The position numbers and the translations under genes are program-made. Shown here in pieces: positions 1-62,219 of a DNA stretch of 64,000 nucleotides (position 1 is its first letter; every line of letters starts with the position of its first letter). The stretch comes from a bacterium. Lineage in GTDB: Bacteria > Patescibacteriota > Dojkabacteria > JAKAPS01 > JAJZLI01. A model generated the notes under the pieces. That model saw only the letters and a program-made list of their open reading frames with translations. It was not told the origin of the DNA and did no database searches. The stretch covers positions 262,087 to 326,086 of the forward strand of contig JAKAWT010000001.1 of NCBI GenBank assembly GCA_021816845.1, read 5' to 3'.

Positions 1-2
1 TA

Positions 3-515
3 AAAGCAGATCCAACTGCTTCATATTTTGCAAAGATAATTAATAATCAAACACAAAAAAGTGACTCAAATTACAAAGGATACTTTTATCTTTCTATTCC
101 TACAATAAACCTCAATAATATCCCAGTAAAAACTAATGTAGATGGGTTCAACACACAAGCTTATGAACATGTTCTTGTAAATTCACTTGCTCAAATGAAA
201 GGAACTGCACTTCCAGGAGAAACTGGAAATGTATATGTTTATGGACACTCTGCTCCACAATGGTTTGCAGATTTATATCCTGGATCCTTCCTTGGAATTT
301 TTACAAATATATTAAAGCTTAACAATGGAAATTTAATTTATCTTAAATTTAAAGGTAAAACATATACATATAAAGTATTTATGGCAAAAGTAGTACAACC
401 TACTGATTTCTCTGTTCTTGCAGCATCTCCAAACAAAAAGTATCTAACATTGATGACATGTATTCCTCCAGGTATTGGGACTCAAAGATATATAGTAAAA
501 GCTGTACTCATATGA
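3..515 (+). CDS. Sortase family transpeptidase, 5'-truncated by the window edge
   Basis: The frame is open from position 3 with no stop. It contains the catalytic TLxTC motif (TLMTCIPPG), a conserved His (VYGHS) and a downstream Arg, and ends at a TGA stop at 513-515. Confidence 0.7.
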   Translation, partial: KADPTASYFAKIINNQTQKSDSNYKGYFYLSIPTINLNNIPVKTNVDGFNTQAYEHVLVNSLAQMKGTALPGETGNVYVYGHSAPQWFADLYPGSFLGIFTNILKLNNGNLIYLKFKGKTYTYKVFMAKVVQPTDFSVLAASPNKKYLTLMTCIPPGIGTQRYIVKAVLI

Positions 516-583: not shown

Positions 584-2239
584 CTACTGGAAAAATTCCT
601 TTTCAAAATCAAAAGCAAATATTTTGCTATTTATATGGATATCTTTTGCTATAATTAACGCTTCACCTACGTCAAATTTTAATAAAGAGTCTTTTTCATC
701 ACTTGATAGTGAGAAAGAACGCGATAATCCAGCAAGATTTATTTTCTCCTGTTTTAATAGAACTTTCAGTGATGTATTTGCAATAATTGATCTTCCCTGT
801 TCTGTTGATATAAAATCCTCTACATCTTGAGTAATATAGAAAATTCCAAAATTATATTTCCTTGCCCTTTTTGAAATTGTTTTTAAATAATTAATAAGAT
901 CAACATTTTCAAACAATCTATGAGCTTCATCAATGAAAATTTCTCTTTGGGTTTTACCATCATGCATATTCCATATGAAATTTAAAACAAGATACATCAT
1001 CAATGATATATTTTCATTATCTAAACTTGAAATATCAAAAACTATTAAATCGTCATCCTTGGATATCTTTATATTAGTCTTTTGAGAATATAAGGATGCA
1101 TTTGTACCTTTTGCTATATTAAATATCTCATCTGCCATACGCGCCTTTGATTTTAAAAGTATATTATACAAATCAACAAATGTGGGAGTTTTGCAGTCTT
1201 TGTATATCCTAATTAAAGCCCTGTCAATTTCATTCTTATCATAATAACTACAGGCCCTTTTTAGAAAACCTTTTAAAAATTGTATCTTTTCTTCAACATT
1301 TTCATTCTTTGTTAAATCAAATGGATTTATATGAAACATTGAGTCATGGCTCAATTTTAAAACTTTGGATCTAGATCCAGAGGATCCAGATCCAGTATTG
1401 TTAAGATTTTTAGCAAGTTTTACATATTCTCCTTCTGGATCTATTACAATTGTTTTTATACCTTTTGATATCATCCTTAAGATGACAGTTTTTGCAAAAA
1501 AACTTTTACCAGCTCCAGACTTTGCAAACACGACTGCATTATAGTTTTCAAACTTAAATATATCAAAGGATATAATAGATTTAGTATTCACATTTATTCC
1601 ATATATTATTCCTGTAAAATCAATAAGGTTATTAGAAGTAAATGGAGTTGATGCTGCTACTGTCTTAAGATTAATAATAGTAGGTAAAGATATATTAGAA
1701 TATGCAGAGTGTAGTAGAGACTTAAAACCTTCAGCATGCCTTAGGTCTAATGGGTAAAATTTGAAACTGCGTGACGCTGTAAAAAGTTCAAAATTCTTAC
1801 AAGAAGTATTTAATGCTGATAGAGAATCTTCAGATATAGCAATAACTATACCAAAAACCATACCCTCTTCTTCCTGGTTTATAATAGATAAATTAAAATC
1901 TTCCAGATTTGAAATCTCAACATCTAGTGACATATCCCTTATTTTACCGGCAGATAATCTTCTGTGCCTTTTTGCTGATAATGATGCAATCCTCATTTTT
2001 ATACCTTGGAGTAAGGCCTTTTTATCAATAGGCTGTATAAACTGCCTTATTACTATATTCGAGTTCAAATTTAGAAAATCAGAAAAATAAAATGGGGTAA
2101 TATCTTGTGGAAAATCATACAGATAATACATTCTATAGAACCTACCGTCCATTTTTAGATATTTATGATTTTCATTTACTATCTTTGGCAATAAAATATC
2201 ACCAGACCCTTTAAAACTTATTTTTATTCTTTTATTCAT
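584..2239 (-). CDS. VirB4/TrbE/CagE-family T4SS ATPase, paralog A (551 aa, ATPase-bearing part)
   Basis: Walker A FAKSGAGKSF is followed by an IDPEGEY motif, and Walker B is IFIDEAH. It aligns along its length with the intact paralog at 7019..9196. An in-frame GS-rich insertion (NTGSGSSGSRSK) is encoded by the palindromic 15-bp repeat. Confidence 0.75.
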   Translation of the reverse strand: MNKRIKISFKGSGDILLPKIVNENHKYLKMDGRFYRMYYLYDFPQDITPFYFSDFLNLNSNIVIRQFIQPIDKKALLQGIKMRIASLSAKRHRRLSAGKIRDMSLDVEISNLEDFNLSIINQEEEGMVFGIVIAISEDSLSALNTSCKNFELFTASRSFKFYPLDLRHAEGFKSLLHSAYSNISLPTIINLKTVAASTPFTSNNLIDFTGIIYGINVNTKSIISFDIFKFENYNAVVFAKSGAGKSFFAKTVILRMISKGIKTIVIDPEGEYVKLAKNLNNTGSGSSGSRSKVLKLSHDSMFHINPFDLTKNENVEEKIQFLKGFLKRACSYYDKNEIDRALIRIYKDCKTPTFVDLYNILLKSKARMADEIFNIAKGTNASLYSQKTNIKISKDDDLIVFDISSLDNENISLMMYLVLNFIWNMHDGKTQREIFIDEAHRLFENVDLINYLKTISKRARKYNFGIFYITQDVEDFISTEQGRSIIANTSLKVLLKQEKINLAGLSRSFSLSSDEKDSLLKFDVGEALIIAKDIHINSKIFAFDFEKEFFQ

Positions 2240-2246
2240 AAATAAT

Positions 2247-2849
2247 CTATATAAAACTTAAAATATTAATAATCTCATCTCTTGTATCTACAATTTTTGC
2301 ACGTAGTGGAGTTTTGGAAAGTAAGAATAAAATTTGTTTATCATGGACCTTTAGAGAGTTATCTATGTTGTTTAATTCCTTCTTAAAAGATAAAGATTTC
2401 CTGGGATGTTTTATCTTATAAGTTATAAAAAACCTTTGGGAGTAAATCTTATTTTGCTTATAGAACATTTTAAAACTATCTTTGTATAATTTTTGTAAAT
2501 CTACTTTATTATTTTTGGATTCACTGGATCTGAATTCCCTGAATCTTAATCCTCGGGACCCAGATCCTCTGGATCTAGATCCTTTGGAATTTGGTCCTTT
2601 AATATTTTTTATATATTTTAAAATTTCACTTTCCTCTATCTCTCTAGATACTACAGTTATGTCTATCGGAATATGCACACCTTTTAAAAATTCTTTGTAC
2701 TTTTTTATAAAATCAATCTTTACATCTTCCTCAGATAGAACAAAATGTGAAGGGAAAACCTCTATGATTCTCATATAAAAATAATCTTTCAGGATTATTG
2801 TCCCTCCTAAAACATCAATTATTGGATAGAAATCATTTGTTTTTTTCAT
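2247..2849 (-). CDS. Conserved T4SS-associated protein immediately upstream of VirB4 (paralog of 9225..9908)
   Basis: Same position relative to VirB4 as 9225..9908, with recognisable similarity (…IIDVLGGTIILKDYFYMRIIEVFPSHFVLSEE… vs …NLLILKNGNVCIVIETSAVNFYLLSEIE…). It carries five degenerate 15-bp repeat units encoding GSRSRGSGSRG. Its stop codon lies 7 nt before the VirB4-A ATG, in a different frame. Confidence 0.4.
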   Translation of the reverse strand: MKKTNDFYPIIDVLGGTIILKDYFYMRIIEVFPSHFVLSEEDVKIDFIKKYKEFLKGVHIPIDITVVSREIEESEILKYIKNIKGPNSKGSRSRGSGSRGLRFREFRSSESKNNKVDLQKLYKDSFKMFYKQNKIYSQRFFITYKIKHPRKSLSFKKELNNIDNSLKVHDKQILFLLSKTPLRAKIVDTRDEIINILSFI

Positions 2850-3213
2850 TGAATTGAGACCTTTTTATTCCTAAGAATTTTGATTCTTGAAGCCTTACTT
2901 CTGGAAGCTCTGCTTCTTGGAGTTCTACTTCAAAGATATTGTATGAGAAAATATATTTTTTATCTTTGAATAAATATTTAATAGAATCCAAAATTAAGAT
3001 ATATGTAGGTCTCCCTCTATAATTTTGTTTTATCAAAAAATAGAAGATAGCTATAATAGAAGATCCTAAAAATATTTTTATATGTATATCAAGTGAAGAT
3101 ACTACCAAAAAAAGAATCGGGGGTGCTGAAAATAATACAACAAAAATATCTGAGGTTAGAGAGAAATAATTATTCCTTAAACTTTTGATTTTATAAACTT
3201 TTACTTTGTCCAT
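2833..3213 (-). CDS. VirB3-like small two-TM membrane protein
   Basis: 126 aa with two hydrophobic helices, sitting upstream of VirB4 as in VirB3/PrgI-type proteins. It resembles the N-terminal 110 aa of 9912..11819. Confidence 0.4.
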   Translation of the reverse strand: MDKVKVYKIKSLRNNYFSLTSDIFVVLFSAPPILFLVVSSLDIHIKIFLGSSIIAIFYFLIKQNYRGRPTYILILDSIKYLFKDKKYIFSYNIFEVELQEAELPEVRLQESKFLGIKRSQFNEKNK

Positions 3214-4133
3214 TATATTATAGATTTAATTTTGGATGATAGAGAAAATATTCTTTCATTTATGACACCACCAAGAAGTTGAGGAATCAAAGAGAGAGAA
3301 AATAGAACTATAATTCCAAGTATCAATCTTTCTAAATTTCCTATGTAATAATTATTAACTATTACTACAAATACAGAAATACCAATTAAGAATGCCGGCT
3401 GGATAAATAAAAGCTGCACTATTTTAGAGAAAGCATTAGGCAATAAATCTCCCATTGGAGGATATATAGATATAACAATAAAAAGAGGAAATAGGAGAAT
3501 TAGAATCCAAAGCATAATAAATCTTATTATAAACTGCAAAGAGAATATGAACAGCGCTATAATAAGAAGTATGTATAATACTATTGAGACAATTCCAGAA
3601 AATATTCCTATTTGAAGTGATGAAGCCCCCATCGTGTTTACAATAGTTGAGAATAAACTTGAACTTCCTCCTATCATATGTACGACTATAAATTGATCTA
3701 CAACATTTATAAATGTTATGAAAAAAGACAAGAAATATATAGATGTAAAAAGAAATATTACTGAAATAAAAAGACTACCTAATAAATCAGATGGAGATAA
3801 ATTGGTTTTACCAACCGTTGCTTCTCCAATTAAATGTATAACATAAACAAGAATTATTACTGGTATAATTGAAATTGCAAGATATTGGGTCCCATTTCTA
3901 TAGTTAGAAATAGCAGCACCTTCAAAATCACCTCCTCCTGGTTTTAGAATGTTGGGTGTATATTCTGTGAACTGATCTATTATATACCCTAGAGAACATA
4001 CTACTCCTTCAAAAGAATATGTAGTTTGAGACGAGCATCCTGACCCTGTACTTTGATTTTGAGCAAATATAGGGGATGCTAGCAGAAAAAGCAGTAATGA
4101 ACTAATAAAAAGTCCCCGAATTAACAACCCCAT
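3213..4133 (-). CDS. Secreted polytopic membrane protein, VirB6/TrbL-like (paralog of 52025..53635)
   Basis: Signal peptide ending …SPIFAQ, then a Ser/Thr/Gly-rich segment with two Cys (GSGCSS…VVCSLGY), then at least 6 TM helices. This architecture is shared with 52025..53635 (…VFAQTTTTSSS…CAPANG…CGF). Confidence 0.45.
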   Translation of the reverse strand: MGLLIRGLFISSLLLFLLASPIFAQNQSTGSGCSSQTTYSFEGVVCSLGYIIDQFTEYTPNILKPGGGDFEGAAISNYRNGTQYLAISIIPVIILVYVIHLIGEATVGKTNLSPSDLLGSLFISVIFLFTSIYFLSFFITFINVVDQFIVVHMIGGSSSLFSTIVNTMGASSLQIGIFSGIVSIVLYILLIIALFIFSLQFIIRFIMLWILILLFPLFIVISIYPPMGDLLPNAFSKIVQLLFIQPAFLIGISVFVVIVNNYYIGNLERLILGIIVLFSLSLIPQLLGGVINERIFSLSSKIKSII

Positions 4134-4353
4134 TTATAAATGTAGTTAAACTAGTAGCACTAAGTACAATAAAAAGACCTATCATTATCCAGACTATTCT
4201 CTTTACAAGTTTAGATCTCTCTTGTGGATTATCTGCATTTAAAATAAATTGAATCCCTAATATTATTATAATTATTAGTAATACTGTCTCCACTGTAGTT
4301 ACTAATAAGGAAGCTATATTTGAAACAAATTGTGACAATCCTGGTATTTGCAT
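4102..4353 (-). CDS. VirB2/TrbC pilin-like small hydrophobic protein
   Basis: 83 aa with two hydrophobic helices separated by a short polar loop. It is the first gene of the minus-strand operon, which is where VirB2 usually sits. Confidence 0.35.
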   Translation of the reverse strand: MQIPGLSQFVSNIASLLVTTVETVLLIIIIILGIQFILNADNPQERSKLVKRIVWIMIGLFIVLSATSLTTFINGVVNSGTFY

Positions 4354-4465: not shown

Positions 4466-4519
4466 TTGACACAATATGACACAAATGATATAGTATAAGG
4501 GTAGTAATACTACCCTTAT
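4466..4519 (+). promoter_or_regulatory. Sigma70-like promoter with a 25-bp perfect palindrome operator overlapping the abiEi start codon
   Basis: -35 TTGACA at 4466-4471, a 17-nt spacer, then -10 TATAGT at 4489-4494. The palindrome ATAAGGGTAGTAATACTACCCTTAT (4495-4519) covers the predicted transcription start and the ATG at 4518. A direct repeat TGACACAA x2 lies at 4467-4484. Confidence 0.5.
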
Positions 4520-5111
4520 GTATAATCAAATTAAAAGTGTAGAAAAACTAATATTGTCTGGTAAAAAGGTTTTCACTACTGGAGATTTAGCCGTACTTTG
4601 GGAAATTACAAACAGAAATAGGCTGAGGGATAGGATAAAATATTATCTGAAAAATAAAAGACTTCAATCTATCCACAGAGGTATTTATGTTTATGATAAT
4701 AATTATACAAGGGAGGATATAGCACAAAAATTATTTCCATTATCATATATTTCTCTCTATACAACTTCACAAATATATGGACTAACATTTCAGTACTACT
4801 CAGACATTTATTCAATTGCCTTAAAAAGCAAAAAGTATGAAATAGATGGGACAATATACATATATCATAAGGTTAAAGAATCAATTTTTTATAACACCAT
4901 TGGACTAACAAATAATGGCAGGTATACTATTGCTAGTAAAGAAAGAACAATTTGTGATATGTTATATGTTTTCCCAAAGATATCTTTTGACAATTTAAGA
5001 GAAATAAATATCAAAAAATTAGAGGAAGTTTCTAAAATTTATGATAATAGAAGATTGGAAAAATCAATCAACAATATTATTTTAGACATTAATAAACATG
5101 ATAGATCTTGA
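4518..5111 (+). CDS. AbiEi-family antitoxin / transcriptional autoregulator (type IV toxin-antitoxin)
   Basis: About 197 aa with an N-terminal wHTH-like segment (…KVFTTGDLAVLWEITNRNRLRDRI…RGIYV…). It lies immediately upstream of and overlaps an AbiEii-like nucleotidyltransferase gene, and has a palindromic operator at its own promoter. Confidence 0.55.
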   Translation: MYNQIKSVEKLILSGKKVFTTGDLAVLWEITNRNRLRDRIKYYLKNKRLQSIHRGIYVYDNNYTREDIAQKLFPLSYISLYTTSQIYGLTFQYYSDIYSIALKSKKYEIDGTIYIYHKVKESIFYNTIGLTNNGRYTIASKERTICDMLYVFPKISFDNLREINIKKLEEVSKIYDNRRLEKSINNIILDINKHDRS

Positions 5112-5772
5112 AAAGCATGCACAAATACTAAAAAATATACTAAAAGATATTTACACTGATAAATATTTACAAACATCCTTAGCCTTTAAAGGAGGGTCTT
5201 GCCTATATATGTTTTATGGATTAGACAGATTTTCAGTTGATTTAGATTTCAACTTAAAAACTGAAAATTTTGATCCAGATAAGATTACAAAAATACTAAA
5301 GAACTATATCAACATAAATGATCAATCAAATAAAAGGTTTACATGGTTCTGGTTAGGGAGTTATGAAGAAAACAAACAAAAAATAAAACTAGAGATTTCT
5401 AAAAGGGATTATCCAGATAAATATATAAACAAAGATTTTTACGGTATTACCATTTCAATAATGGAACCATCCTACATGTTTGCACATAAACTCTGTGCCA
5501 TCACAGATAGAAAGGTACTGCAAAATAGAGATCTATATGATGCTCATTTTATGTTTAAAAAAGGGTTTGAAATTAATGAGGAGATTATAATGATTAGAAC
5601 TGGAAAAACTAAAAAAGAATATTTTGCATACTTGGTAAAATATATAAATGACAATGTTAATTCTCAAAACATCATTGAGGGATTAGGAGAATTATTAAAT
5701 AGTAGCCAAAAAGACAGTGTAAGAGCAACACTGCGTAGAGATATATTGTTTGATCTAGAGAGTAGAATGTAA
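5098..5772 (+). CDS. AbiEii/AbiGii-family nucleotidyltransferase toxin (DUF1814-like)
   Basis: Hallmark motifs LAFKGGSCLY (GGT/S) and RFSVDLDF (R-x-S-x-D-L-D-F). It overlaps the upstream gene by 14 nt. Confidence 0.65.
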   Translation: MIDLEKHAQILKNILKDIYTDKYLQTSLAFKGGSCLYMFYGLDRFSVDLDFNLKTENFDPDKITKILKNYININDQSNKRFTWFWLGSYEENKQKIKLEISKRDYPDKYINKDFYGITISIMEPSYMFAHKLCAITDRKVLQNRDLYDAHFMFKKGFEINEEIIMIRTGKTKKEYFAYLVKYINDNVNSQNIIEGLGELLNSSQKDSVRATLRRDILFDLESRM

Positions 5773-5855
5773 TAAGAGGAAACTTAATTAAAATACATCA
5801 ATAAAAGGAAAATTTGTAATCTTTTAAAAATTAGAGTAAAATTTTCTCTAAGTAT

Positions 5856-7004
5856 ATGAAAAATAAAATAGTAACATTATCTATATTGTTAGCATTGCTG
5901 TTTGTAGTAGCTGGACTTTTTTCAGTATCCTTATTATTCTCTAAAAAATCTCATGCATCAAGTCTTAAATTGTATCAAAATGTAAACGTATATAAAAAAT
6001 CATCTGGGAATTTATACGTTCTTGGCAACTCACTTTCTGTCAACAATAAAATTTTAGGAGATATGGTATTTTTTGGTAGCAATTCCATAATAAATAATAT
6101 TATATCTCAGGATTTCATTGATTTTTCTGGAACTACTATAGTGAATGGTACTATAGTAAATAATGCATATGTTGTTTCAGGAAATGTCACTCTAAATGGA
6201 AAGGTTAAAGAAGATTTAGTTTTTCTTGGAGGAAACATAGATATATCAAGAAATGCTACTGTGTACGGTAACTTATACGCCCTAGGAGGAGAAGTACTTG
6301 TTAATGGTACTATCATGCATAATGCATATGTTGATGCTGGACATTTTACTTTAAATGGCAATATTGGAGGTAACTTAAAACTATCATCTAATAATGTTGA
6401 AATTAATAAAGGATCTAATATCCATGGATATCTTTCATATACAGGATCAGATAATAAAAAATCCTATGTTGATAAAAATAGTATAAAAGGACATATATAT
6501 AGATATTATACAAACCAAGATCAGAAAGAAATTGCCCTCACCATAGCAAGGACAGTACTTACATTCCTTGCTATGATAATATTTGTGTTACTATTTATAA
6601 GAATATTTCCAAGATTATCTTTATCAGTAGTAAAGAATGCCACAGAAAAAACATGGGTAAGTTTTGGGTATGGATTTGTAGAAATCATAGTAACACCTGT
6701 AATTGCAGCAATATTACTACTAACAATAATAGGGATTCCAGTATCAATATTATTAATAGGGATATATATGTTATTAATTTTTGTATCCTATATGTTAAAC
6801 GGGCTTATATTGGGAGCATTCATTACAAAATATTTATATAGAATGGATGTGGGAATAAGGTTTAGGTCAGCATTTGCTGGAATATTCATATCATCACTTA
6901 TAAGCATAATCCCAGTAATAGGAGGTCTATATAACATATTTATGGGAATTGTGATATTTGGGGCATTTAGCTTAATAATGAAAAATTATATATTAAAAGT
7001 CTAA
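5856..7004 (+). CDS. Membrane protein with an N-terminal anchor, a beta-helical repeat domain (bactofilin/DUF4097-like) and a C-terminal multi-TM region
   Basis: Repeated G-N/T-V/I-x-V/L-N-G units (NGTIVNNAYVVSGNVTLNGKV…GGNIDIS…GGEVLVNGTI…), followed by about 4 TM helices. Confidence 0.4.
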   Translation: MKNKIVTLSILLALLFVVAGLFSVSLLFSKKSHASSLKLYQNVNVYKKSSGNLYVLGNSLSVNNKILGDMVFFGSNSIINNIISQDFIDFSGTTIVNGTIVNNAYVVSGNVTLNGKVKEDLVFLGGNIDISRNATVYGNLYALGGEVLVNGTIMHNAYVDAGHFTLNGNIGGNLKLSSNNVEINKGSNIHGYLSYTGSDNKKSYVDKNSIKGHIYRYYTNQDQKEIALTIARTVLTFLAMIIFVLLFIRIFPRLSLSVVKNATEKTWVSFGYGFVEIIVTPVIAAILLLTIIGIPVSILLIGIYMLLIFVSYMLNGLILGAFITKYLYRMDVGIRFRSAFAGIFISSLISIIPVIGGLYNIFMGIVIFGAFSLIMKNYILKV

Positions 7005-7018: not shown

Positions 7019-9196
7019 CTAGCTAACAATACTGTTATATTGTATCTGTGTATCCTCACCTCCTCCACTTGATTCAGGAGTTTCTTTATCAGTATCAGCA
7101 TCATCCCCTTCACCATCAATGCCATCTGGAGGAACACTTTCTGGTACCGGACTTTCTTGAGATATTCCATCCTGCCTTAAGGGTTCAGACTGGGGTTCTT
7201 CAGTTTCATCTAGCGTATTTTTACCATCTACATCTGCAATTGTATTTGGAACTATCCTATCTAACGATGCACCTTCTGCTCTCATTTTTAATATTTCTTC
7301 TGGATTTGTAGTTATTAGTTTATATTCATATTCGGAAGAATAGATTTGGATTGCTACATGATTTGCACCAACAAAGAATATTCCTTCACCAATTTCCGCA
7401 GATAAAAGTAAATTTTTCTCCCCTGCAGATAAATAAAAGACGTCAGAAAGATGGTCTATAGCAGTAGGAGACTGTCTTAATAAAATCTGAATTGAAGAGT
7501 TAGTAACCACAGCCTTTCCATACTCATTGGATAGAAAATCATCTACATCCTGAGATACCGTAGTAAGACCAAGGTAATATTTCCTTGCTCTTTTTGAAAC
7601 TGCATAAACAAATTGTGCAGAATCAGGGTATTGCATTAATATCCAAGCCTCATCTATTATGAATAGTCTTCTCTTCAGTTCTTTTTTAACCCTTGTCCAT
7701 ATAAAATCCAACATTAAAAACATGGCTATTGGCCTAAGTTCATCTGATAAATCTCTTATTGAAAACACCATAAATTGGTTATTAATATCTACATTTGTAT
7801 GTTGATCAAAAATTCCAGAAGCAGAACCTTTAACAAATTTCTCTAATCTTTGAGCTAGACTATGAGCTTCATCCTCTTCCATTGAAAGGAGGATTTTATA
7901 CAAATCTTCCATTAGAGGTGGATCTTTTACCTGTGTTGAAGGATCAAAAGTTATACCTTTATCTCTGTATGTTAAGATCAAAGCCTTATCTAGTATAGCA
8001 TTCTCCATATTGGTAAGACCTCCTTCCTCACCTCCAAGCATAACTTTAAAAAGCCCATGGAGAGAAAGAATTTTAAACCTTAGTTCATCTTCTCCTTCCT
8101 CATAAACTCCAGATAAATCAAATGGATTTATCTTTGAATCTCCATCTTGGGAAAAAGAAATATATGACCCGTTCATTGCCTTACACAATGTCTCATATTC
8201 CCTTTCTGGATCTATTATTATAATCTGAGTACCTAACATGAGAGATCTTAATGCTTCAAGCTTTACAAGAAAACTCTTCCCTGCTCCAGATTTTGCAAAA
8301 ATTACAGAATTTGCATTCTCAAGATCAAATCTATCAAAAACTACGAGACTTTTATTTGCCTTATTTATTCCATACAAAACTCCTCTGTCTGAAGTTAGTT
8401 CTGATGATACAAAAGGGAATGTTGTAGCTATGGACGTAGTATCCATATTGTGTGTATAGTACATTTTGTCATTACCTTCAGGAAGAGTCGACTTAAATCC
8501 CTCCTCCATTTGGAGGGTTGCTGGTTTAATGATAAGAGACATAGCTCCTAGCGTCGCTTCAAGATTTTTAGATATATCATTAAGTTCTTCAAGTGTATCC
8601 GCTCTTATTGATACATATAAGGCAAAATGGAAATACCTTTCTGATCCTTTCGCAAGATCATCCTGTAATTGTTTTGCATCCTCCAAAGCAACCTTTAAAT
8701 TAGGATCCAAAACTTTCCCTGAATCTATCATGGTATTTGTTGTAGCCTCCATTTCAGCGATTTTTCTTCTAAGTTGTACTAAAACAGTATTTGAGCTTAT
8801 AGGATAATAGAACATACTTATGTCTATGGAATGTTCAAATGTAATTAGAGGAGATAACCAATTGGGAACAACATACCTTGGATATGCAATAGCAAAATAT
8901 GTTTTATAATATTTCTCCCCGATCTTTATATGGGCAAAATCCACTTCAATCGAGGCGGGAGCAATAATATCTTTAATAGAATTTATACCTGTCCCAAACT
9001 CTATTAGAGGATCTTTTGCTGTCTGATCATCAAGACTTTCCATAACTTGTGACTGACCTCCTTGTAGTTGACCTCCTTGTGGTATGGCATTCTGAGCATA
9101 GAAAGTATTAGCATCGTTCTGCTGAGTAGCAGTCCCCTGTTGAGGAGTGACTGTTTGATTATTCTTCTTTTGTTGTTTTTTAAACGGTAAGTTCAT
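7019..9196 (-). CDS. VirB4/TrbE/CagE-family T4SS ATPase, paralog B (intact, 725 aa)
   Basis: Walker A IFAKSGAGKSF, IIDPEREYE, Walker B IIDEAW. It has a Gln-rich N-terminus and an acidic C-terminal tail (…GEGDDADTDKETPESSGGGED…). Confidence 0.8.
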   Translation of the reverse strand: MNLPFKKQQKKNNQTVTPQQGTATQQNDANTFYAQNAIPQGGQLQGGQSQVMESLDDQTAKDPLIEFGTGINSIKDIIAPASIEVDFAHIKIGEKYYKTYFAIAYPRYVVPNWLSPLITFEHSIDISMFYYPISSNTVLVQLRRKIAEMEATTNTMIDSGKVLDPNLKVALEDAKQLQDDLAKGSERYFHFALYVSIRADTLEELNDISKNLEATLGAMSLIIKPATLQMEEGFKSTLPEGNDKMYYTHNMDTTSIATTFPFVSSELTSDRGVLYGINKANKSLVVFDRFDLENANSVIFAKSGAGKSFLVKLEALRSLMLGTQIIIIDPEREYETLCKAMNGSYISFSQDGDSKINPFDLSGVYEEGEDELRFKILSLHGLFKVMLGGEEGGLTNMENAILDKALILTYRDKGITFDPSTQVKDPPLMEDLYKILLSMEEDEAHSLAQRLEKFVKGSASGIFDQHTNVDINNQFMVFSIRDLSDELRPIAMFLMLDFIWTRVKKELKRRLFIIDEAWILMQYPDSAQFVYAVSKRARKYYLGLTTVSQDVDDFLSNEYGKAVVTNSSIQILLRQSPTAIDHLSDVFYLSAGEKNLLLSAEIGEGIFFVGANHVAIQIYSSEYEYKLITTNPEEILKMRAEGASLDRIVPNTIADVDGKNTLDETEEPQSEPLRQDGISQESPVPESVPPDGIDGEGDDADTDKETPESSGGGEDTQIQYNSIVS

Positions 9197-9224
9197 ATTT
9201 TTAAAATTAGTCTTTTTTAATTCA

Positions 9225-9908
9225 TTATTTTGATCCAGAAACTATTGGACCTGTATATTCATCAAAGTCACCTCTAATTTTAGCATTCATAGGATTATAT
9301 ATGCTATAGAAAAGTTTTATTAAATCTGCACTCTCAAGTTGCCTAGATCTTAATCCCATTCTAGAGAGTTGCTTGATTATGTGATCCCTCCTTGGATAAA
9401 GCCTGATTTTTGCAGCCTCAACCAACTTAGTAGTATCTCCAAGTTTAGCTTGTTTACCAAAGAACTGTTTAATAAAAGAAGGTTTCTTAGGCATTGATGC
9501 AAGATATGGAATGACAATATAGAAATGTTTATCTAGAACATTATTTTTCACAATTAAATCCTTAATATTTTTTCTATAAATATCTATTTGGTATTTAATT
9601 TTAGGATCTCTCTGCTTTAATTTATACTCATCAAGATGCTTTAAATATCTTGATATATCAATATTTTCAGTATGTATCATAACTTGGATATAAAAACCGA
9701 GAGAATTTAGTAATCCTGCAAATGCATATATTTTAGATTCCTGCTCAATCTCAGATAAAAGATAGAAATTTACAGCAGAAGTCTCAATGACTATACATAC
9801 ATTTCCATTCTTTAGAATAAGAAGATTATCTTTAATATCTTCTATATCAAGATGATCTTGAGTTGTTGCTACTATAGGTACCCTTTTAGGATCAGATAAA
9901 ATTGACAT
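9225..9908 (-). CDS. Conserved T4SS-associated protein upstream of VirB4 (paralog of 2247..2849)
   Basis: Same synteny and sequence similarity as 2247..2849. The C-termini are also related (…LRSRQLESADLIKLFYSI vs …LRAKIVDTRDEIINILSFI). Confidence 0.4.
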   Translation of the reverse strand: MSILSDPKRVPIVATTQDHLDIEDIKDNLLILKNGNVCIVIETSAVNFYLLSEIEQESKIYAFAGLLNSLGFYIQVMIHTENIDISRYLKHLDEYKLKQRDPKIKYQIDIYRKNIKDLIVKNNVLDKHFYIVIPYLASMPKKPSFIKQFFGKQAKLGDTTKLVEAAKIRLYPRRDHIIKQLSRMGLRSRQLESADLIKLFYSIYNPMNAKIRGDFDEYTGPIVSGSK

Positions 9909-9911
9909 AAT

Positions 9912-11819
9912 TTATATTCCACTAATATTTGTTTTTTCCTCCTTTGATACAGGTATGAACATAAAAGGAGGGATTATTTGGCCACTAATTTCTATTGTTG
10001 CAGTATTAAACTTGTATCCTGCTGCATCAACCTCTATTTCATATCTACCTAAAGGTAAAGGTGTTCTTGTGAAAAACTGCCCTAATTGATTAGTTTTTAC
10101 AGCCCTAACAGGTTTTTGGTTTGTATCTTTTACTATAACTATAGCGTTGTTCAGTATTTTATCCTCATCTGTAATAACAACTCCTGCAACAACATTAGCA
10201 ACCTTTGTAAACTCTGGAAGATGATCAATTAATTGCTGTCTAGTAAGGCCTATAGATTGATCTTGATTGGTCTGATCTAAATTACCTGGTGTATTATCAG
10301 ATTTTTTTTCTTCATGTATCAAAGATTGATCCTGTGGTTGACCTTGGGCCTGAGGTCCTTGGGCCTGAGGACCTTGGATCTGAGGTCCTTGGACTGACTC
10401 TTGATCTGATGTCTGCATATTTCCAAAATCCTGTGATTTAGGTGCAGACAAAGTTGGTTCTGTAAATTTTTGCCCATCTTGTTCTGCAGATACAGACTTC
10501 TCTGTAAGCTGAGTTTTCAATCTCTGGTTTTCTTCCTCTAATGCCTGTATCCTTGTTAATATTTTAGCAAGCTCGGCTTCTCTTGACTCACCCTCAGAAT
10601 GAGTTGTTGCAGCAACTGTGGGATCAAGATCCTTGGGATCAAGATCCGTTGGATTAAGATCCTTGGGATTAAGATCCTTGAGATCGGGTTCCTCGGGATC
10701 AAGTTCCGCGGATTTGACTTGAGTATTATTTGATGTATTTGAAGATAGGTCTGTGGAAACAGCTTTAGTATCAATACTTGAAGATACATCTTGTTGCACT
10801 ACATCCGCCTCTTCTTTATTAATGGTAGTTGGCTCTGTAGAAGATGTTACTGTTTGCTCTTGTGGAATCGTTTGAGTAGGTGATGTATTTTCAGTATTAA
10901 TCTGATCGACAATATCTTGAAAAGGATTATCTATCTGCCCAACATTAGAGGTTTCAGGTTTAGCTTGGGTATTTATAAAATCATCTCTAATATTGGGATT
11001 TACAGATGATCTAACTTCTTCTGCTGCAGAGACTGGAGTTATGTTATTTATATTGAAAGGATTGTACTGAGGGATTTTATCTCCATCTTTAGTATCTTCA
11101 CTACCAGTTGAAGTATTGGGTATAGCACCTGGTATGTCAGGACCATTAGATATAGAACCTATCCCTTGAAGATTATCTTTCTGAAGATTACCATCCTGTA
11201 TGGGCATTCCTGATAGAATATTTGGACTTGCAACAAAAGGGTCACTCGCTACATGCATTGTAGACCCCTGATTAAACAAATCAGTTCCTAGATTTGAAGG
11301 TGGCGTAGACCCACTAGTAGATCCATTAGATATCATACTATTTATCTTATCAATATTTGCAATTAAAGTCTTCTCCTTTACATCAAGGGCGTTATCTACT
11401 GCATCTTCATTAACTGAATTTAGTGAATTATCAAAAGGAGATTGGTATAGAAACATAGAAACATCTTTTTTATTGTTATTTTTATTAACCATAGGCCTAT
11501 CAATCTTCAAAATATTGGGTATAACTTCATTTTTCTTCCAAACCCTTTGGGTAGGATTTTTTATTGCAACTATAAAATTTGTAATCCACTCATCTAGAGG
11601 TCTATCATCAATAGGAACAAAAGCTATTGCCAAAGCTAAAAGAACAAATATTGCAGTAAATGGAACAGTTATGTAGTTACTTATTTTTACAACATACATT
11701 ATAAATCCAATCAACAAAGGTGTTGCAATTATAAGGAATTGCCTCATAGACATATTCCCTATAAGTTTAAACTGAATACTCATTATATTTTGAGGAATTG
11801 AATGCTGTTTCTCGTTCAT
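9912..11819 (-). CDS. VirB3-like N-terminal membrane module fused to a long disordered region, a coiled coil and a C-terminal transthyretin/CarboxypepD_reg-like beta-sandwich
   Basis: The N-terminal two TM helices resemble 2833..3213. The low-complexity region includes a (KDLNP)x6 array and GPQAQ repeats. A coiled coil (…AELAKILTRIQALEEENQRLKTQLTEK…) is followed by the C-terminal …VVAGVVITDEDKILNNAIVIVKD…GRYEIEVDAAGYK…. Confidence 0.45.
   Translation of the reverse strand: MNEKQHSIPQNIMSIQFKLIGNMSMRQFLIIATPLLIGFIMYVVKISNYITVPFTAIFVLLALAIAFVPIDDRPLDEWITNFIVAIKNPTQRVWKKNEVIPNILKIDRPMVNKNNNKKDVSMFLYQSPFDNSLNSVNEDAVDNALDVKEKTLIANIDKINSMISNGSTSGSTPPSNLGTDLFNQGSTMHVASDPFVASPNILSGMPIQDGNLQKDNLQGIGSISNGPDIPGAIPNTSTGSEDTKDGDKIPQYNPFNINNITPVSAAEEVRSSVNPNIRDDFINTQAKPETSNVGQIDNPFQDIVDQINTENTSPTQTIPQEQTVTSSTEPTTINKEEADVVQQDVSSSIDTKAVSTDLSSNTSNNTQVKSAELDPEEPDLKDLNPKDLNPTDLDPKDLDPTVAATTHSEGESREAELAKILTRIQALEEENQRLKTQLTEKSVSAEQDGQKFTEPTLSAPKSQDFGNMQTSDQESVQGPQIQGPQAQGPQAQGQPQDQSLIHEEKKSDNTPGNLDQTNQDQSIGLTRQQLIDHLPEFTKVANVVAGVVITDEDKILNNAIVIVKDTNQKPVRAVKTNQLGQFFTRTPLPLGRYEIEVDAAGYKFNTATIEISGQIIPPFMFIPVSKEEKTNISGI
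10621..10710. repeat. 15-bp tandem repeat x6 (GGATCAAGATCCTTG family) encoding KDLNP/KDLDP pentapeptides inside 9912..11819
   Basis: Direct reading gives ggatcaagatccttg / ggatcaagatccgtt / ggattaagatccttg / ggattaagatccttg / agatcgggttcctcg / ggatcaagttccgcg. This is the same unit family as the GGATCTAGATCC repeats at 1367, 2525 and 40458. Confidence 0.8.
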
Positions 11820-26463: not shown

Positions 26464-28068
26464 ATGGAAAACCTGCTCAGAGAAATTTTAAAACGTAGAA
26501 AGGTTGTTGGAGTTGATATATCCCCAGGTTCTGTAAAAGTTGTCGAATTTGAAAAAAAGAAAGATTTCTATTCTCTAATATCAATAGGTGAAAGTGACCT
26601 TCCTGCAACAGCTTTTGTAGCTGGTGTTATTAGACAAAAAGATGTAGTTGCAAACAAACTAAAAGAGGCTCTATTAGTAAAAAATCCAAAAAGAATCAAA
26701 ACTAGGTTTGCTGTTGTTACTCTGCCGGATGATCAAATATATACACAAATAATAAACCTCCCTAAGGTAGATAGAAAAAAAATTAAAGGTGCTCTATCTC
26801 TACAACTATCATCTTTTGTCCCAATGAAAGAAGAAGATATCTATTGGACATTTGATATCCTGTCTGAGGATGATAAAAATTATGAAATAGTAATAACTGC
26901 AGTGACTAAAGAAACTACTGATTCTATAACTGAAACGTTGGGACTTATAGGGCTTACCCCATTAATGTACGAAAGTAGGTCAAGATCAGCATTAAGAGCA
27001 ATAACTGGATCCCAGATAGAAAAAGATTCAGAATTCCTTCTCATTGATATTGGTACAAGTGTAACAAGTATTTCGATCACAAAAAAAGACACTATACAAT
27101 TTTCTTCATCTTTCTATTTTGGTATGAATCAGATTATAAAGGTAATAGGAGAATACAAAAAATTCAATGATGATCAGGTAAAAGAATTTCTCTTAAAGGA
27201 TGGAACAGAACAAAAAGATCCAGAATTACAAATCCATATAGATGCTTTATTTGAAACTCTTGATACTGAATTTAAAAAAGCTATAAATTTTTATGGAGAA
27301 GATAAAATCTCAAAAGTATATATTTATGGTGAAGCAGCAAGTCTGCAAGGGATTTTAGAGCATATACAAAAAAATACAAAGATAAAGGTTGAACAGGCTA
27401 CTATAGATATAAAAGTATATCCTGTACTACAGTGGGAGAAGCATGAAAAAATATCACCATATATCCCAATCATTGGGGTAGAACTTGCAAATAAAATAAA
27501 AAATATTGCTTATATAAACTTAATTCCTAAAGATCAAAGCTCAAAAGCAATAAGACAATATTTTATACAATACACAATAAACGCTCTAAAAATATTACTG
27601 TTCAACTTCTTCCTCCTTTCTTTGCTTTTTCTAGTACTAAATTACTATAATATGCAAACGATAAATTCTGAAAAAGCCCAAATTGCACAATATACTAGTT
27701 ATACTAATAACCCAAAATATCAGGGGGTTGCAAATAATATTAACAACTTAAATTCTACGCTAGCAACAATATCAAAAGTATATCAATCCCAAAATATTTG
27801 GTCCCCTACACTAATAAAATTGGCATCAATTGTACCAACTGGAATGATTATATCTAATATAAAACTAGATAACGCTAGTAAAACCTCCACCCCACAATGG
27901 CAAATAACGATGTCTGGAATTGCATTAAATAGAAAACAAATAATATTATTATCTTCAAATATACAAGCTATGACACCTTTGTTTTCAAATATACAAATGC
28001 CTATATCTAATTTCCAAGAAAGCGTGAATGTTCCTTTCTCTATAGTATTTAATGTGTCTCCATCATGA
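26464..28068 (+). CDS. pilM: PilM-PilN fusion (actin-like ATPase domain plus TM/periplasmic PilN-like region)
   Basis: N-terminal VVGVDISPGSVKVVEFE PilM signature. The C-terminal third has a TM helix (ILLFNFFLLSLLFLVLNYY) and a PilN-like tail, 534 aa in total. Confidence 0.7.
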   Translation: MENLLREILKRRKVVGVDISPGSVKVVEFEKKKDFYSLISIGESDLPATAFVAGVIRQKDVVANKLKEALLVKNPKRIKTRFAVVTLPDDQIYTQIINLPKVDRKKIKGALSLQLSSFVPMKEEDIYWTFDILSEDDKNYEIVITAVTKETTDSITETLGLIGLTPLMYESRSRSALRAITGSQIEKDSEFLLIDIGTSVTSISITKKDTIQFSSSFYFGMNQIIKVIGEYKKFNDDQVKEFLLKDGTEQKDPELQIHIDALFETLDTEFKKAINFYGEDKISKVYIYGEAASLQGILEHIQKNTKIKVEQATIDIKVYPVLQWEKHEKISPYIPIIGVELANKIKNIAYINLIPKDQSSKAIRQYFIQYTINALKILLFNFFLLSLLFLVLNYYNMQTINSEKAQIAQYTSYTNNPKYQGVANNINNLNSTLATISKVYQSQNIWSPTLIKLASIVPTGMIISNIKLDNASKTSTPQWQITMSGIALNRKQIILLSSNIQAMTPLFSNIQMPISNFQESVNVPFSIVFNVSPS

Positions 28069-46464: not shown

Positions 46465-47610
46465 CTATCTTTCTTGTAGTGGTGTCATTAGGTAGGTAAA
46501 ATTTGGATCAGATGTGTCTTCAAATTTAGAAACTTTCTTTTTTTGTGGGTTATTAGTTTGTATTTGTAATTCATTACCCTCAACATGATTTAAAAAATCC
46601 ATAAGATACTTTGAATTAAAACAAATAACACCTTTTTCCCCTTCTATTTTTGTACTAATAAAACTTACACTCTCACCAACTTCAGCAAGAGAAGAATAGA
46701 TTTTTATTTCATTTTTTTTAGGATTTAAATCTAAATATATTCTTGATATATCTTTAAATTTAAAAATGTTTGAAAGCTTAACAACATCTCTAAATTCTTC
46801 AAAATTAATGGTAAATTTATTATCAAATGATTCTGGAAATATTTTTTTATAATCAGGATATTTTCCATCTATAATCCTAGATATAAATTTTACATTAAGT
46901 ATTTCAAATATCAATTGATTTTTATTCTCAGTTTCAGATATATATATATAAGTATCATCATCTACATTAAGTTCTTTTATTATTTTAGAAATATTATCAA
47001 CTGATGTAGTAGGGATAATAATATCTCTATCAGTTTCTTTTTTTACCTCAACATTGGATATTTTATAACTTGAAAATCTAAATCCATTTATTCCAATCAA
47101 TTTTAAAGATGATTTATTTGAAGATATACTTGTTTCAAACAATATACCATTTAATATTGTTTTTGACTGATCAGTTGATGAAGCAAAAGTCACTTTATCA
47201 GCAGCATTAGAGAAATCTAAAGCGTTTATTTTTATGAAATAATCATTTTTTTTGTCCTTAAATTCAGGAAATTCATCTGAAGGTATAGTATTTAGAGAAA
47301 TTTCATTTTTTAAATCTGAAATTATAAGTTTAAAATTTTCAACCTTTATATTTACAGCTTCAGATTTAAGATTTGACAGAAAATCATATAAATTCTTTAA
47401 ATTTACTGTTATTGACCCTTCTTTTACAATTTCTACTCCACAATATGAAACTATAGTCTGTTCCATATCTGTCGCACAAATTTTAATTTTTCCTTCCTCT
47501 GTATTTAGAAGAACATTAGATAATATAGGAATACTAGATCTGAAATTTTGTACTTTACTTGCAAAATTTAAAGACTCTAATAAATTTTCACGAACTACAT
47601 TTATCTCCAT
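46465..47610 (-). CDS. dnaN: DNA polymerase III beta sliding clamp
   Basis: 381 aa. The N-terminus (…SIPILSNVLLNTEEGKIKICATDMEQTIV…) matches the clamp consensus. Located downstream of dnaA. Confidence 0.75.
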   Translation of the reverse strand: MEINVVRENLLESLNFASKVQNFRSSIPILSNVLLNTEEGKIKICATDMEQTIVSYCGVEIVKEGSITVNLKNLYDFLSNLKSEAVNIKVENFKLIISDLKNEISLNTIPSDEFPEFKDKKNDYFIKINALDFSNAADKVTFASSTDQSKTILNGILFETSISSNKSSLKLIGINGFRFSSYKISNVEVKKETDRDIIIPTTSVDNISKIIKELNVDDDTYIYISETENKNQLIFEILNVKFISRIIDGKYPDYKKIFPESFDNKFTINFEEFRDVVKLSNIFKFKDISRIYLDLNPKKNEIKIYSSLAEVGESVSFISTKIEGEKGVICFNSKYLMDFLNHVEGNELQIQTNNPQKKKVSKFEDTSDPNFTYLMTPLQER

Positions 47611-47959: not shown

Positions 47960-49381
47960 CTACAACTGGTGCCTGATCTCTGCTATTTGGTCTTTAATTT
48001 GTAGATCAACATCAATTAAATTTTCAATCTTATCCACACCATGCATTATTGTAGTATGGTCTTTTCTTTTAAGTATTGATGCAACTTCTACAAGAGAAAG
48101 GTTTAAATCTGTTCTTAAAATATACATAGCAATTTGTCTAGGTAATACAACTTTAACAGTTCTTCTCTCTCCAAAAATATCTTTTCTTGAAACTTCATAT
48201 TTTTCACAAATAGAGTCTATAACATCTTTAGGTCTAAGTCTTTTTTGTCTTTTTTTTCTTGATATACCAATATATTTTGATATATCTTCTGGAGTTAACT
48301 CTTTATTTAGAGAAGTTTGCAGAGCGATTACTTTAGTTAATACACCTTCTAGTTCTCTAATATTAGATTCAATACTTATTGCTATCATTGAAAGAACTTC
48401 ATCTTTAATTCTAATCCCTCTTTCCTCACATTTTTTTCTTAAAATTGCCACCCTTGTTTCTTCATCTGGAAGAGAGATATCTGCAACCATACCACCTTCA
48501 AATCTAGAAACAAGTCTTTCTTCTAAATTTTCTATATCTCTTGGATGTCTATCAGAAGCTAAAATGATTTGTTTATTTGCTTGGTGAAGAGTATTGAATG
48601 TATGAAAAAATTCTTCTTGTGTACCTTTTCTTCCTGATATGAATTGAATATCATCTATTATAAGCACATCATTCTCCCTATACTGTTTTCTAAAATTTTC
48701 GGATTTACCTTTCTTTATAGAATTTATAAGTTCATTAAGAAATGTTTCACTACTTACATACGCAACCTTATAATCAGGATTTTTTTCTAATATAGAATTT
48801 CCTATAGCTTGCATAAGATGTGTTTTTCCAAGACCTACTCCTCCAAATACAAAAAATGGGTTATATATTTCTCCAGGTTTATCTATTATTGCACAAGCAG
48901 CTGCATGAGCAAGTCTATTAGATGAACCAACAATAAAATTTTCAAGTGAATATTTAGGATTTAGACCAGCTTTTATTAAAGAAGAGTCTCTTGTAGTTTC
49001 AAATTCTTTTTTTGAAGCATCTTTTGTATTTGAATCTTTAGTGTTTGTTTCAAACAAAGGAGTATTTTCGACAATATCTCCTTTTTTTACAACTAAAGTT
49101 ATTTCTACAGGTTTTCCATAAGCATCAGATAAAGCCTTTCTTGTAATATTTAAATAATTCAGATTAATATAATCGGATGTGAATGAATTGGGACAAGATA
49201 TTTTTGCAATACCATCTTTTATGTCAATAAGTTTTGTTTTTGAAAACCATATGTGATAGTTTTTTTCAGAAATATTTAGCCTTATTTGGGATACAGCAAT
49301 TTTCCAAATTCCTGGTAGTAGATCTTTTTGATCTGAACTTTTTGAATTTGAATCTTGAATTTTCCCGAAATTTCTATGCAT
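47960..49381 (-). CDS. dnaA: Chromosomal replication initiator DnaA
   Basis: Walker A GGVGLGKTHLMQAIG, Walker B LIIDDIQF, sensor/arginine-finger region, and a C-terminal HTH DNA-binding domain (…VSRKDIFGERRTVKVVLPRQIAMYIL…). Confidence 0.95.
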   Translation of the reverse strand: MHRNFGKIQDSNSKSSDQKDLLPGIWKIAVSQIRLNISEKNYHIWFSKTKLIDIKDGIAKISCPNSFTSDYINLNYLNITRKALSDAYGKPVEITLVVKKGDIVENTPLFETNTKDSNTKDASKKEFETTRDSSLIKAGLNPKYSLENFIVGSSNRLAHAAACAIIDKPGEIYNPFFVFGGVGLGKTHLMQAIGNSILEKNPDYKVAYVSSETFLNELINSIKKGKSENFRKQYRENDVLIIDDIQFISGRKGTQEEFFHTFNTLHQANKQIILASDRHPRDIENLEERLVSRFEGGMVADISLPDEETRVAILRKKCEERGIRIKDEVLSMIAISIESNIRELEGVLTKVIALQTSLNKELTPEDISKYIGISRKKRQKRLRPKDVIDSICEKYEVSRKDIFGERRTVKVVLPRQIAMYILRTDLNLSLVEVASILKRKDHTTIMHGVDKIENLIDVDLQIKDQIAEIRHQL

Positions 49382-53635: not shown

Positions 53636-53640
53636 AATAT

Positions 53641-54318
53641 ATGGATTTAAGACAATTTTACTATGACAAATATAAGGATGATTTTTCATTGTATGAGGAA
53701 TTTATAAGGAAATTCTCTTATAGTAGTGATGTAGATAATTTTTTGACCCTTGAGCTTAAAACCTTTGATGAATATTGTGATGACAGAACCCTTCCCCTGT
53801 ATGACTATATGTACTCCTCACTATATGAGCTTTTAAAAACTCCTACAGTCTCAGATTTACAATTTCTTTATAGGGTCATAGACAAAGATTTTATAGAGTT
53901 TTTTTCTTCTCAAAAAGGGAGAGATTTCCTTTTTTATGAAGGACTAAAGAATGAAAAAGGAGAGGAAATTACAATCAGGAAAGATGCTTTGATTGGAGAA
54001 GAAAATTATGAAGATCTGTCTTTCTCTCCTCATATTCTTGATCCAAATTATTTTTATTTCATTGACCACGATGATGATATTAGGGGGATCAAATATTTGA
54101 AGGAAGTGAAAACCCTTTTTATTATAAGGAAGTTTTTAGAATATGGAGGTTCCTTTGCATATCTTAATAATGCAGAGGATAGTCTTTTTATAAAGAAACT
54201 TTGGATTCCTTTATCTGAAGGCATTATAAAAATTTCCGATAAAAACCTTGTAACTTCAAGCATATCATTATATGAAGATATCTTTGATTTTAACTTAGAT
54301 TTAAATATTGAACTTTAA
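53641..54318 (+). CDS. Hypothetical acidic cytoplasmic protein
   Basis: 225 aa, D/E/Y-rich, with no motifs. Its stop overlaps the start of the giant gene (ATGA at 54317-54320). Confidence 0.35.
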   Translation: MDLRQFYYDKYKDDFSLYEEFIRKFSYSSDVDNFLTLELKTFDEYCDDRTLPLYDYMYSSLYELLKTPTVSDLQFLYRVIDKDFIEFFSSQKGRDFLFYEGLKNEKGEEITIRKDALIGEENYEDLSFSPHILDPNYFYFIDHDDDIRGIKYLKEVKTLFIIRKFLEYGGSFAYLNNAEDSLFIKKLWIPLSEGIIKISDKNLVTSSISLYEDIFDFNLDLNIEL

Positions 54319-62216: not shown

Positions 62217-62219
62217 ATT

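Follow-up and report, generated by a model that had tools for sequence, protein, structure and literature searches.

What is encoded by the three closely packed genes on the minus strand at 7019-11819 of the 64,000-nucleotide stretch of Dojkabacteria genome analysed here (NCBI GenBank assembly GCA_021816845.1, contig JAKAWT010000001.1, positions 262,087 to 326,086; hereafter the window)? [quoted passage not shown] Module B is the canonical core of this system, and a second, co-oriented set of genes nearby, module A (584..4353, minus strand), is a rare addition of a small clade.

Results

The open reading frames (ORFs) of module B, in DNA of ~30% GC, are exactly those of the initial annotation, and the identical three genes are annotated in the metagenome-assembled genome GCA_027425395.1 ('Patescibacteria group bacterium'). 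We likewise find two co-oriented sets that each consist of a VirB3-class gene, a 'partner' gene and a virB4 gene, and the spacing of about 3 kb given for them holds: on the same strand, VirB4-B ends at 7019, 2.67 kb from the point (4353) at which the pilin gene of module A starts. Module B has no adjoining pilin or VirB6 gene, also as described.

The VirB4-B ATPase (725 aa; 7019..9196, minus strand) is of the CD1110 family and the MPF_FATA class. It scores 399.6 bits on NF045971, the CD1110-family profile, against a cut-off of 325, aligning with profile positions 186-751, and P-loop_TraG is matched with an E-value (E) of 7e-28; VirB4-A reaches 235.4 bits on NF045971, below the same cut-off. 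VirB4-B is not a VirB4/CagE protein of the proteobacterial type (TIGR00929, 129.7 bits against a cut-off of 643.1; PF03135, 13.9 against 21). The Walker A motif, GAGKS, occupies aa 304-308 (8273..8287, minus strand) and the Walker B motif, FIIDEA, aa 512-517 (7646..7663, minus strand). Residue counts bear out the two extra tails that had been reported for VirB4-B: a lineage-specific Gln-rich N-terminal tail, aa 1-75 (8972..9196, minus strand), with 14 Gln in residues 1-60, and an acidic, Pro-rich C-terminal tail, aa 640-725 (7022..7279, minus strand), with 22 Asp or Glu in the final 80. The MNLPF start of the protein is common to Daviesbacteria VirB4. VirB4-B is 47-59% identical (~50%) to mainstream Patescibacteria VirB4 and 29-41% identical to Firmicute and Actinobacterial VirB4.

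The 'partner' had been left unidentified, and a local Pfam scan of both partner proteins, from modules A and B, assigned no family. The module B protein (TrsD-B, or partner-B; 227 aa; 9225..9908, minus strand) matches the TrsD/TraD family NF041427 with E 1e-5 and positions 104-233 of NF045975, the VirB4 profile of Mycoplasma integrative and conjugative elements (ICEs), with E 1.8e-10, and its orthologues are annotated with the newer Pfam family PF26593, 'TraC-like'. By profile comparison, the partner is a TrsD/TraC-like protein, a stand-alone homologue of the VirB4 N-terminal domain. Searches returned 1261 homologues across Patescibacteria at ~45-55% identity. A remote homology of TrsD to the N-terminus of VirB4 is already on record (PMC12102498).

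The third gene (635 aa; 9912..11819, minus strand) encodes a VirB3-class membrane anchor with a PrgI-family N-terminus containing two transmembrane segments (TMs), a low-complexity linker and a C-terminal beta-sandwich. The PrgI domain (PF12666), aa 8-89 (11553..11798, minus strand), is above threshold (29.5 bits; cut-off 27) and includes both TM helices, predicted at aa 28-46 and 50-68. The linker (10260..11522, minus strand) comprises ~420 residues rich in Ser, Asn, Asp, Gln, Thr and Pro, with a short coiled-coil-like stretch and 15-nt (5-aa) tandem repeats at 10342-10392 and 10619-10707 made up of QGPQA-like and DLNPK-like units. The CarboxypepD_reg-like beta-sandwich, aa 544-610 (9990..10190, minus strand; E 3e-7), is, in the loci sampled, conserved in Daviesbacteria and this clade alone. 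Extended PrgI proteins of 280-416 aa are usual in other Patescibacteria, and a PrgI orthologue lies upstream of TrsD and VirB4 in nearly all loci that reach far enough upstream. The 635-aa protein is only 36-39% identical to its relatives over its full length; TrsD-B, by contrast, is 73-75% identical. With two TMs only, the extension at aa 100-635 should share the N-terminus's side of the membrane, the cytoplasmic one in the standard VirB3 topology.

The view that these three genes correspond to one VirB4 unit comes from relatives in which the same segments are joined. On the 894-position profile NF045975, the module A VirB3-like protein (VirB3-A) maps to positions 8-96, partner-B to 104-233 and both VirB4 proteins to ~292-893, so the mapping is collinear; on the 752-position CD1110 profile, VirB4-B starts at position 186. 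A Brevibacillus plasmid encodes PrgI and an unsplit VirB4 of 804 aa, and Geobacillus and Pontibacillus plasmids encode PrgI, a TrsD-like protein and a short VirB4. In the Embleya plasmid NZ_CP108778 (L092, 1365-2414), a 349-aa 'PrgI family protein' combines PrgI (aa 14-99) with a TraC/TrsD-like segment (aa 139-247), and this PrgI-TraC-like fusion is followed by VirB4. Judged from its domain content, the Embleya fusion ties the first gene of the triad to the second in the manner of a Rosetta stone.

How widespread are the two modules? A scan of GTDB species representatives yielded at least 79 mainstream loci and at least one further A-type locus. All 79 non-A loci (from Saccharibacteria, Daviesbacteria, Andersenbacteria and others) have a single TraC-like to VirB4 pair, PrgI precedes the pair in most of them (wherever the contig was long enough and the HMM detected PrgI), and none has a second VirB4 within 10 kb. 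The two nearest sister-lineage loci carry a single triad and no module A. The Patescibacteria-clade T4SS has been described by Quinonero-Coronel et al. 2025 (PMC12102498), who report VirB4 in 2417 of 3035 genomes, TrsD as its most abundant associated component and VirB3/PrgI adjacent. Module B shows the same core, with a VirB4 that groups with Patescibacteria and with TrsD and VirB3/PrgI adjoining virB4. Since every mainstream locus has a single triad and the published layout for the phylum agrees, it is module B that represents the canonical core, with module A as the addition. The initial annotation, which presented module B as the 'second' copy, thus had the relationship the wrong way round: module B is the orthologue of the single PrgI-TrsD-VirB4 triad of the 79 other loci, already published (PMC12102498). 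We found no account of a second cassette in that paper, its one match to 'paralog' concerning VirB2 pilins, and assemblies that carry module A were not found in its supplements.

Module A is confined to a tiny group. The VirB4-A clade consists of 13 clusters at 48-87% identity, after which identity drops sharply to ~31-32% with thousands of mainstream Patescibacteria VirB4s, and VirB3-A has five representatives among 1.84 billion proteins. Six contigs that carry module A (L002, L003 and L006-L009) share one gene order: PrgI-fusion, TrsD-B, VirB4-B, a spacer, pilin, VirB6-like, VirB3-A, TrsD-A and VirB4-A, with opposite-strand sortase and DnaJ genes downstream of VirB4-A. In the window the sortase gene (1-515, plus strand) lies on the opposite strand beside VirB4-A and encodes a TLMTC motif, with PF04203 found in its orthologues; it is kept in all A-carrying relatives with listed annotation (L002, L006, L007 and L008), adjoining VirB4-A or up to three genes away. 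A surface protein of the system could be its substrate.

The five genes of module A are a pilin gene (4102-4353; T4SS_pilin, PF18895, E 6e-10), a 306-aa VirB6-like gene with seven predicted TMs (3213-4133), the 126-aa VirB3/TcpE-like VirB3-A gene with two TMs (2833-3213), the TrsD-like TrsD-A (partner-A) gene (2247-2849) and the VirB4-A gene (584-2239), all on the minus strand. Just upstream of the pilin gene is a perfect sigma-70 consensus, TTGACA-16-TATAAT (12/12; 4411-4384, minus strand), the sole perfect match in 12.6 kb; promoter-like sites in general were not enriched over shuffles in this AT-rich DNA (80 against 77.8 expected). VirB4-A (1367-1395) and TrsD-A (within 2247-2849) contain Gly/Ser/Arg-rich insertions whose length varies between close relatives. 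These insertions and the repeats in the PrgI linker may be slippage-prone variable regions.

We compared the two modules pair by pair, and alignment upheld two of the three paralogous pairs that had been claimed. VirB4-A and VirB4-B are homologous (31% identity over 561 columns, E 6e-88), and Walker A (GAGKS) and Walker B (hhhDEA) are kept in both. The partner pair is homologous at the profile level: although BLASTP was marginal (E 0.024), hhalign gave a probability of 95.3% (E 2.1e-8) over 164 collinear columns from end to end. The hhalign probability was 58% with three partner-A sequences and 95% once orthologues from the contigs of relatives were included; in the database, partner-A has just three homologues. 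The two partner HMMs match reciprocally at 1e-7 to 1e-9, both match the same Firmicute TrsD-like proteins, and the partner-A orthologue in L008 has a precomputed TraC-like match. An AF2 model of partner-A from three sequences (pLDDT 47.9) was unusable for a fold search; the order of its secondary-structure elements is as in partner-B.

For the third pair, the N-terminus of the 635-aa protein and the 126-aa VirB3-A, the claimed homology was not demonstrated. BLASTP was non-significant, the HMMs did not cross-match at E<0.01, and hhalign gave 12.5% (E 0.002) over 26 columns only, which are at identical positions, 66-91, after TM2. VirB3-A has no PrgI match and scores 16.7 bits on TcpE against a cut-off of 29.9, and four of five members of its family match the N-terminal membrane segment of Mycoplasma VirB4 (best E 3e-6). 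The VirB3-class proteins belong to different families, PrgI in module B and a TcpE/Mycoplasma type in module A. Both have two TMs within ~90 residues and the same gene position, and one Pontibacillus protein weakly links them (E 1e-6 to the PrgI-B profile, E 0.043 to the VirB3-A profile). We treat the two as equivalents in function and position, for which homology is plausible.

Both modules are maintained by purifying selection, which is strong on module B. In Nei-Gojobori comparisons of the window with L002, dN/dS was 0.016 for TrsD-B, 0.060 for VirB4-B, 0.091 for VirB4-A, 0.135 for TrsD-A and 0.287 for VirB3-A, with housekeeping controls at 0.043 and 0.157. Over the same genome pairs, orthologue identity in module B is 73-99% for TrsD-B and 77-91% for VirB4-B, and in module A it is 36-84% for TrsD-A, 49-87% for VirB4-A, 40-72% for VirB3-A, 48-92% for the pilin and 45-92% for the VirB6-like protein. 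Module A evolves 2-3 times faster than module B, which is among the most constrained genes of the region; module A is relaxed or diversifying. Intact ORFs, intact motifs and dN/dS of 0.02-0.29 rule out a pseudogene or degenerate copy in either module.

The gap between the modules (4518..7004, plus strand) holds a gene for a presumed antitoxin of 197 aa followed by the gene for the AbiEii toxin (PF08843; the pair at 4518-5772), and a gene for a DUF8173/bactofilin-like membrane protein (5856-7004; Bactofilin E 4e-5, DUF8173 in the orthologue). In L009 the modules abut, with a spacer of 97 bp. The spacers of other relatives contain DUF8173 alone, a different AbiEii gene, a 996-aa protein, or a Kelch protein and others; the AbiE pair is absent from L002 and L009, and the AbiEii found at this junction in L007 is another, longer one. 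Its shrinkage to 97 bp in L009 and the change of cargo from one examined genome to the next mark the ~3-kb gap as secondary, and the junction behaves as an insertion hotspot.

Which components would serve module B? The suggestion that it uses components encoded at 52-63 kb is backed by synteny. A 536-aa polytopic protein with ~7 TMs (52025-53635, plus strand) has BLASTP homologues encoded on the same strand as, and just upstream of, canonical triads in two Daviesbacteria (L014 and L072) and in six Saccharibacteria loci, and from this conserved position it is probably the canonical VirB6-like partner of module B. Its comparison by BLASTP with the module A VirB6-like protein was non-significant, and the Daviesbacteria loci have no pilin or module A-type VirB6-like gene after VirB4. 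The cluster to which it belongs (52025-63631, plus strand) encodes this protein, a 225-aa protein, a 1571-aa protein with C-terminal TMs, a 282-aa protein, a 787-aa NlpC/P60 protein and several proteins with a single N-terminal TM. A Pfam scan of the cluster detected only NlpC/P60, plus a sub-threshold Tube match in a 229-aa protein. The cluster probably provides the remaining canonical T4SS components, ~40 kb from the triad and across dnaA.

The genes dnaN (46465-47610) and dnaA (47960-49381) are beside the lowest-GC stretch of the window (22%, 46-48 kb), and this is likely the origin region; their position is consistent with the published origin-proximal location of Patescibacteria T4SS genes. 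The genes neighbouring the triad are housekeeping genes, a chromosomal context. We found no relaxase among the subset of window ORFs that was scanned, the rest of the genome not being searched, and no coupling protein near the triad. Scans of the window for tRNA and Rfam families found none. A 534-aa PilM with a PilN-like C-terminus (26464-28068, plus strand) indicates that type IV pilus assembly genes are present in the same window.

Discussion

How would a VirB4 unit divided in this way operate? In unsplit VirB4 proteins the N-terminal domain contacts VirB3. We propose that the two-TM hairpin of the PrgI/VirB3-class protein would anchor the complex in the membrane and that TrsD-B would supply the VirB4 N-terminal domain, bridging the anchor and the ATPase. 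VirB4-B, presumably a hexameric motor, would drive assembly of a VirB2-like pilus, passage of substrate through a VirB6-like channel, or both, the channel most likely being the 536-aa protein at 52025-53635. The function would probably be host interaction or uptake, not conjugation, because to our knowledge no relaxase is known for T4SSs of the Patescibacteria type and because the homologues in the cultivated Saccharibacterium S. epibionticum are needed for epibiotic growth. In the passages of PMC12102498 and PMC12857230 that report the work of Wang et al. 2023, the homologous S. epibionticum genes are required for epibiotic growth and TrsD is essential.

Several observations weigh against this proposal. 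The contacts among TrsD, VirB4 and VirB3 are suggested by analogy with the fusions and with the R388 structure. The partner-B profile, when searched against PDB sequences, found nothing, and hhalign placed partner-B on the right region of the unsplit Brevibacillus VirB4 N-terminus (residues 33-144) with a non-significant E of 0.22. The synteny that ties the 536-aa protein to module B as a VirB6-like partner is found in other classes only, and the protein has no Pfam match. Finally, two TMs and the standard VirB3 topology would place the C-terminal beta-sandwich of the anchor in the cytoplasm, which is odd for such a domain. The triple fusion in Mycoplasma, the PrgI-TrsD fusion in Embleya, the split state seen here and a structural match to TrwK together make a clear case for TrsD as a detached VirB4 N-terminal domain.

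Where did module A come from? The initial annotation attributed the two modules to an ancient tandem duplication. This is unproven, because a neighbour-joining tree of VirB4 never joins A with B. In that tree (37 sequences, 535 columns, 200 bootstraps and four Firmicute/Actinobacterial outgroups; sampling was limited and the method distance-based only), A and B are each monophyletic (100%) and are sisters in 0 of 200 bootstraps, although a long-branch artefact is possible. VirB4-B is sister to Daviesbacteria VirB4. VirB4-A forms a long branch that falls outside B and mainstream Patescibacteria in 42% of replicates and is otherwise unresolved with respect to the outgroups. VirB4-A is 31-33% identical to Patescibacteria VirB4, 25% identical to the outgroups and 25.7% identical to its best plasmid match; for VirB4-B, identity to the outgroups is 35-38%. 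Indels and signature residues were uninformative on its placement, with no indel exclusive to A and B, and GC3 is alike in the two modules.

One reading, which we hold tentatively, retains the duplication: a single triad would have been duplicated in tandem in this lineage, after which module A diverged very fast by neo- or sub-functionalisation. In its favour are the shared orientation of the modules, their abutment in L009, the homology of two protein pairs out of three and a similar GC3; in addition, VirB4-A is nearer to the VirB4 of Patescibacteria than to that of Firmicutes or Actinobacteria. The genes of module A evolve 2-3 times faster, so its long branch could be an artefact. The tree nevertheless speaks against duplication: A and B are never monophyletic together, B goes with Daviesbacteria, and A lies outside all Patescibacteria in 42% of replicates. 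A and B also share no exclusive indel, and their VirB3-class proteins come from different families, PrgI and TcpE/Mycoplasma-type. Furthermore, a pilin and a VirB6-like gene belong to module A itself, arranged as on a Pontibacillus plasmid, which gives it the look of a whole cassette and not of a copied triad.

In a second reading, about as tentative as the first, module A is a minimal five-gene T4SS cassette that was acquired horizontally and inserted beside the resident triad, such that the modules are xenologues. Gene order is as in the Pontibacillus plasmid cluster, save for an extra pilin-like gene there after the first pilin. The module A pilin comes close to the cut-off of the Mbov_0395 (Mycoplasma ICE) family (38 bits against 40), and the match of four in five VirB3-A members to the Mycoplasma VirB4 N-terminus points in the same direction. 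Acquisition would also suit the tiny size of the A clade (13 VirB4 clusters, and five VirB3-A representatives among 1.84 billion proteins), the absence of module A from sister lineages, the perfect sigma-70 consensus promoter that module A has of its own, and an inter-module junction at which cargo such as AbiE and Kelch genes tends to gather. However, a donor lineage was not found: the best non-A relatives of VirB4-A are Patescibacteria (31-33%), and the best plasmid match is at 25.7%. The composition of module A is native, the flanking sortase and DnaJ genes are conserved chromosomal context, and a non-exhaustive search noted no integrase or repeats at the borders.

Could both modules instead build one apparatus, in which VirB4 paralogues with their own VirB3 and TrsD adaptors take distinct positions and share the intervening pilin and VirB6-like gene? 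In L009 the eight genes form one unbroken cluster on the same strand, with the pilin and VirB6-like genes between the triads, catalytic motifs and purifying selection are evident in both ATPases, and VirB4 reportedly occupies two non-equivalent positions in the R388 structure. We consider such co-assembly quite unlikely, since a single VirB4 suffices in the mainstream system, unrelated opposite-strand cargo parts the modules in most carriers, module A is furnished with a promoter-like site of its own, the 52-kb region offers a separate VirB6-like gene of the canonical kind, and the differing evolutionary rates argue against tight co-evolution.

Taken alone, module B adds little, being a further example of the published Patescibacteria T4SS core. 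The two-module arrangement is new and modestly interesting. TrsD, so far uncharacterised, ranks as the most abundant T4SS-associated gene of Patescibacteria and is an essential one, and in the two-module clade the cognate specificity of VirB3, TrsD and VirB4 could be put to the test. The second cassette, fast-evolving but selected, lets comparison separate the parts that the machine itself constrains from those under constraint by the host interface. In the boldest reading, which is improbable, two energising units work side by side in this clade, module B deeply conserved and probably essential, while module A serves host range or an arms race, or else the VirB4 paralogues, each with private adaptors, join in a heteromeric motor; if either were true, the clade would amount to a natural experiment on the roles of the split VirB3, TrsD and VirB4 parts.

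Comparison with known systems

The closest known system is the Patescibacteria-clade T4SS, which is likewise chromosomal and near dnaA/dnaN, with the order VirB3(PrgI)-TrsD-VirB4 and a VirB4 of the CD1110/MPF_FATA type. The present genome also has a VirB2-like pilin, and its VirB4 has ~50% identity to Saccharibacteria and Daviesbacteria orthologues. It differs from that system in that a divergent pilin-VirB6-VirB3-TrsD-VirB4 cassette follows the triad, that PrgI is 635 aa long (280-416 aa there) with a CarboxypepD_reg-like C-terminus, and that VirB4 has Gln-rich and acidic tails and the VirB6-like gene is ~40 kb away.

Similarly, the three-gene arrangement recurs in the MPF_FATA conjugation genes trsC-trsD-trsE of the pGO1/pSK41 type and in split VirB4 clusters on plasmids of Bacillales (Pontibacillus NZ_CP062975 and Geobacillus pGspE55-1), with VirB4 at 38% identity. 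The middle genes of these Firmicute clusters match the partner-B HMM at 8e-44 and 1e-19 and the partner-A HMM at 1e-7 and 2e-8. Those clusters are plasmid or ICE conjugation systems, whereas the present locus is chromosomal and set among housekeeping genes; related clusters, such as the Embleya locus, carry a coupling protein and a relaxase or replication-relaxation gene. The Mycoplasma ICE VirB4 (Mbov_0397 family, NF045975) and the unsplit CD1110-family VirB4 (Brevibacillus, 804 aa) contain VirB3-like, TrsD-like and ATPase segments in the same order. Here these are three separate genes, with a score of 261 bits against the NF045975 cut-off of 590.

Finally, the Rickettsiales vir homologue (rvh) T4SS has duplicated VirB4, VirB6, VirB8 and VirB9. 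It resembles the system described here as a chromosomal, non-conjugative T4SS with a divergent second VirB4 in a host-dependent bacterium of reduced genome. In contrast to rvh, which is a diderm MPF_T system encoded in scattered islands, the present system is derived from monoderm MPF_FATA machinery, and it is the complete VirB3-TrsD-VirB4 unit that occurs twice, in neighbouring positions.

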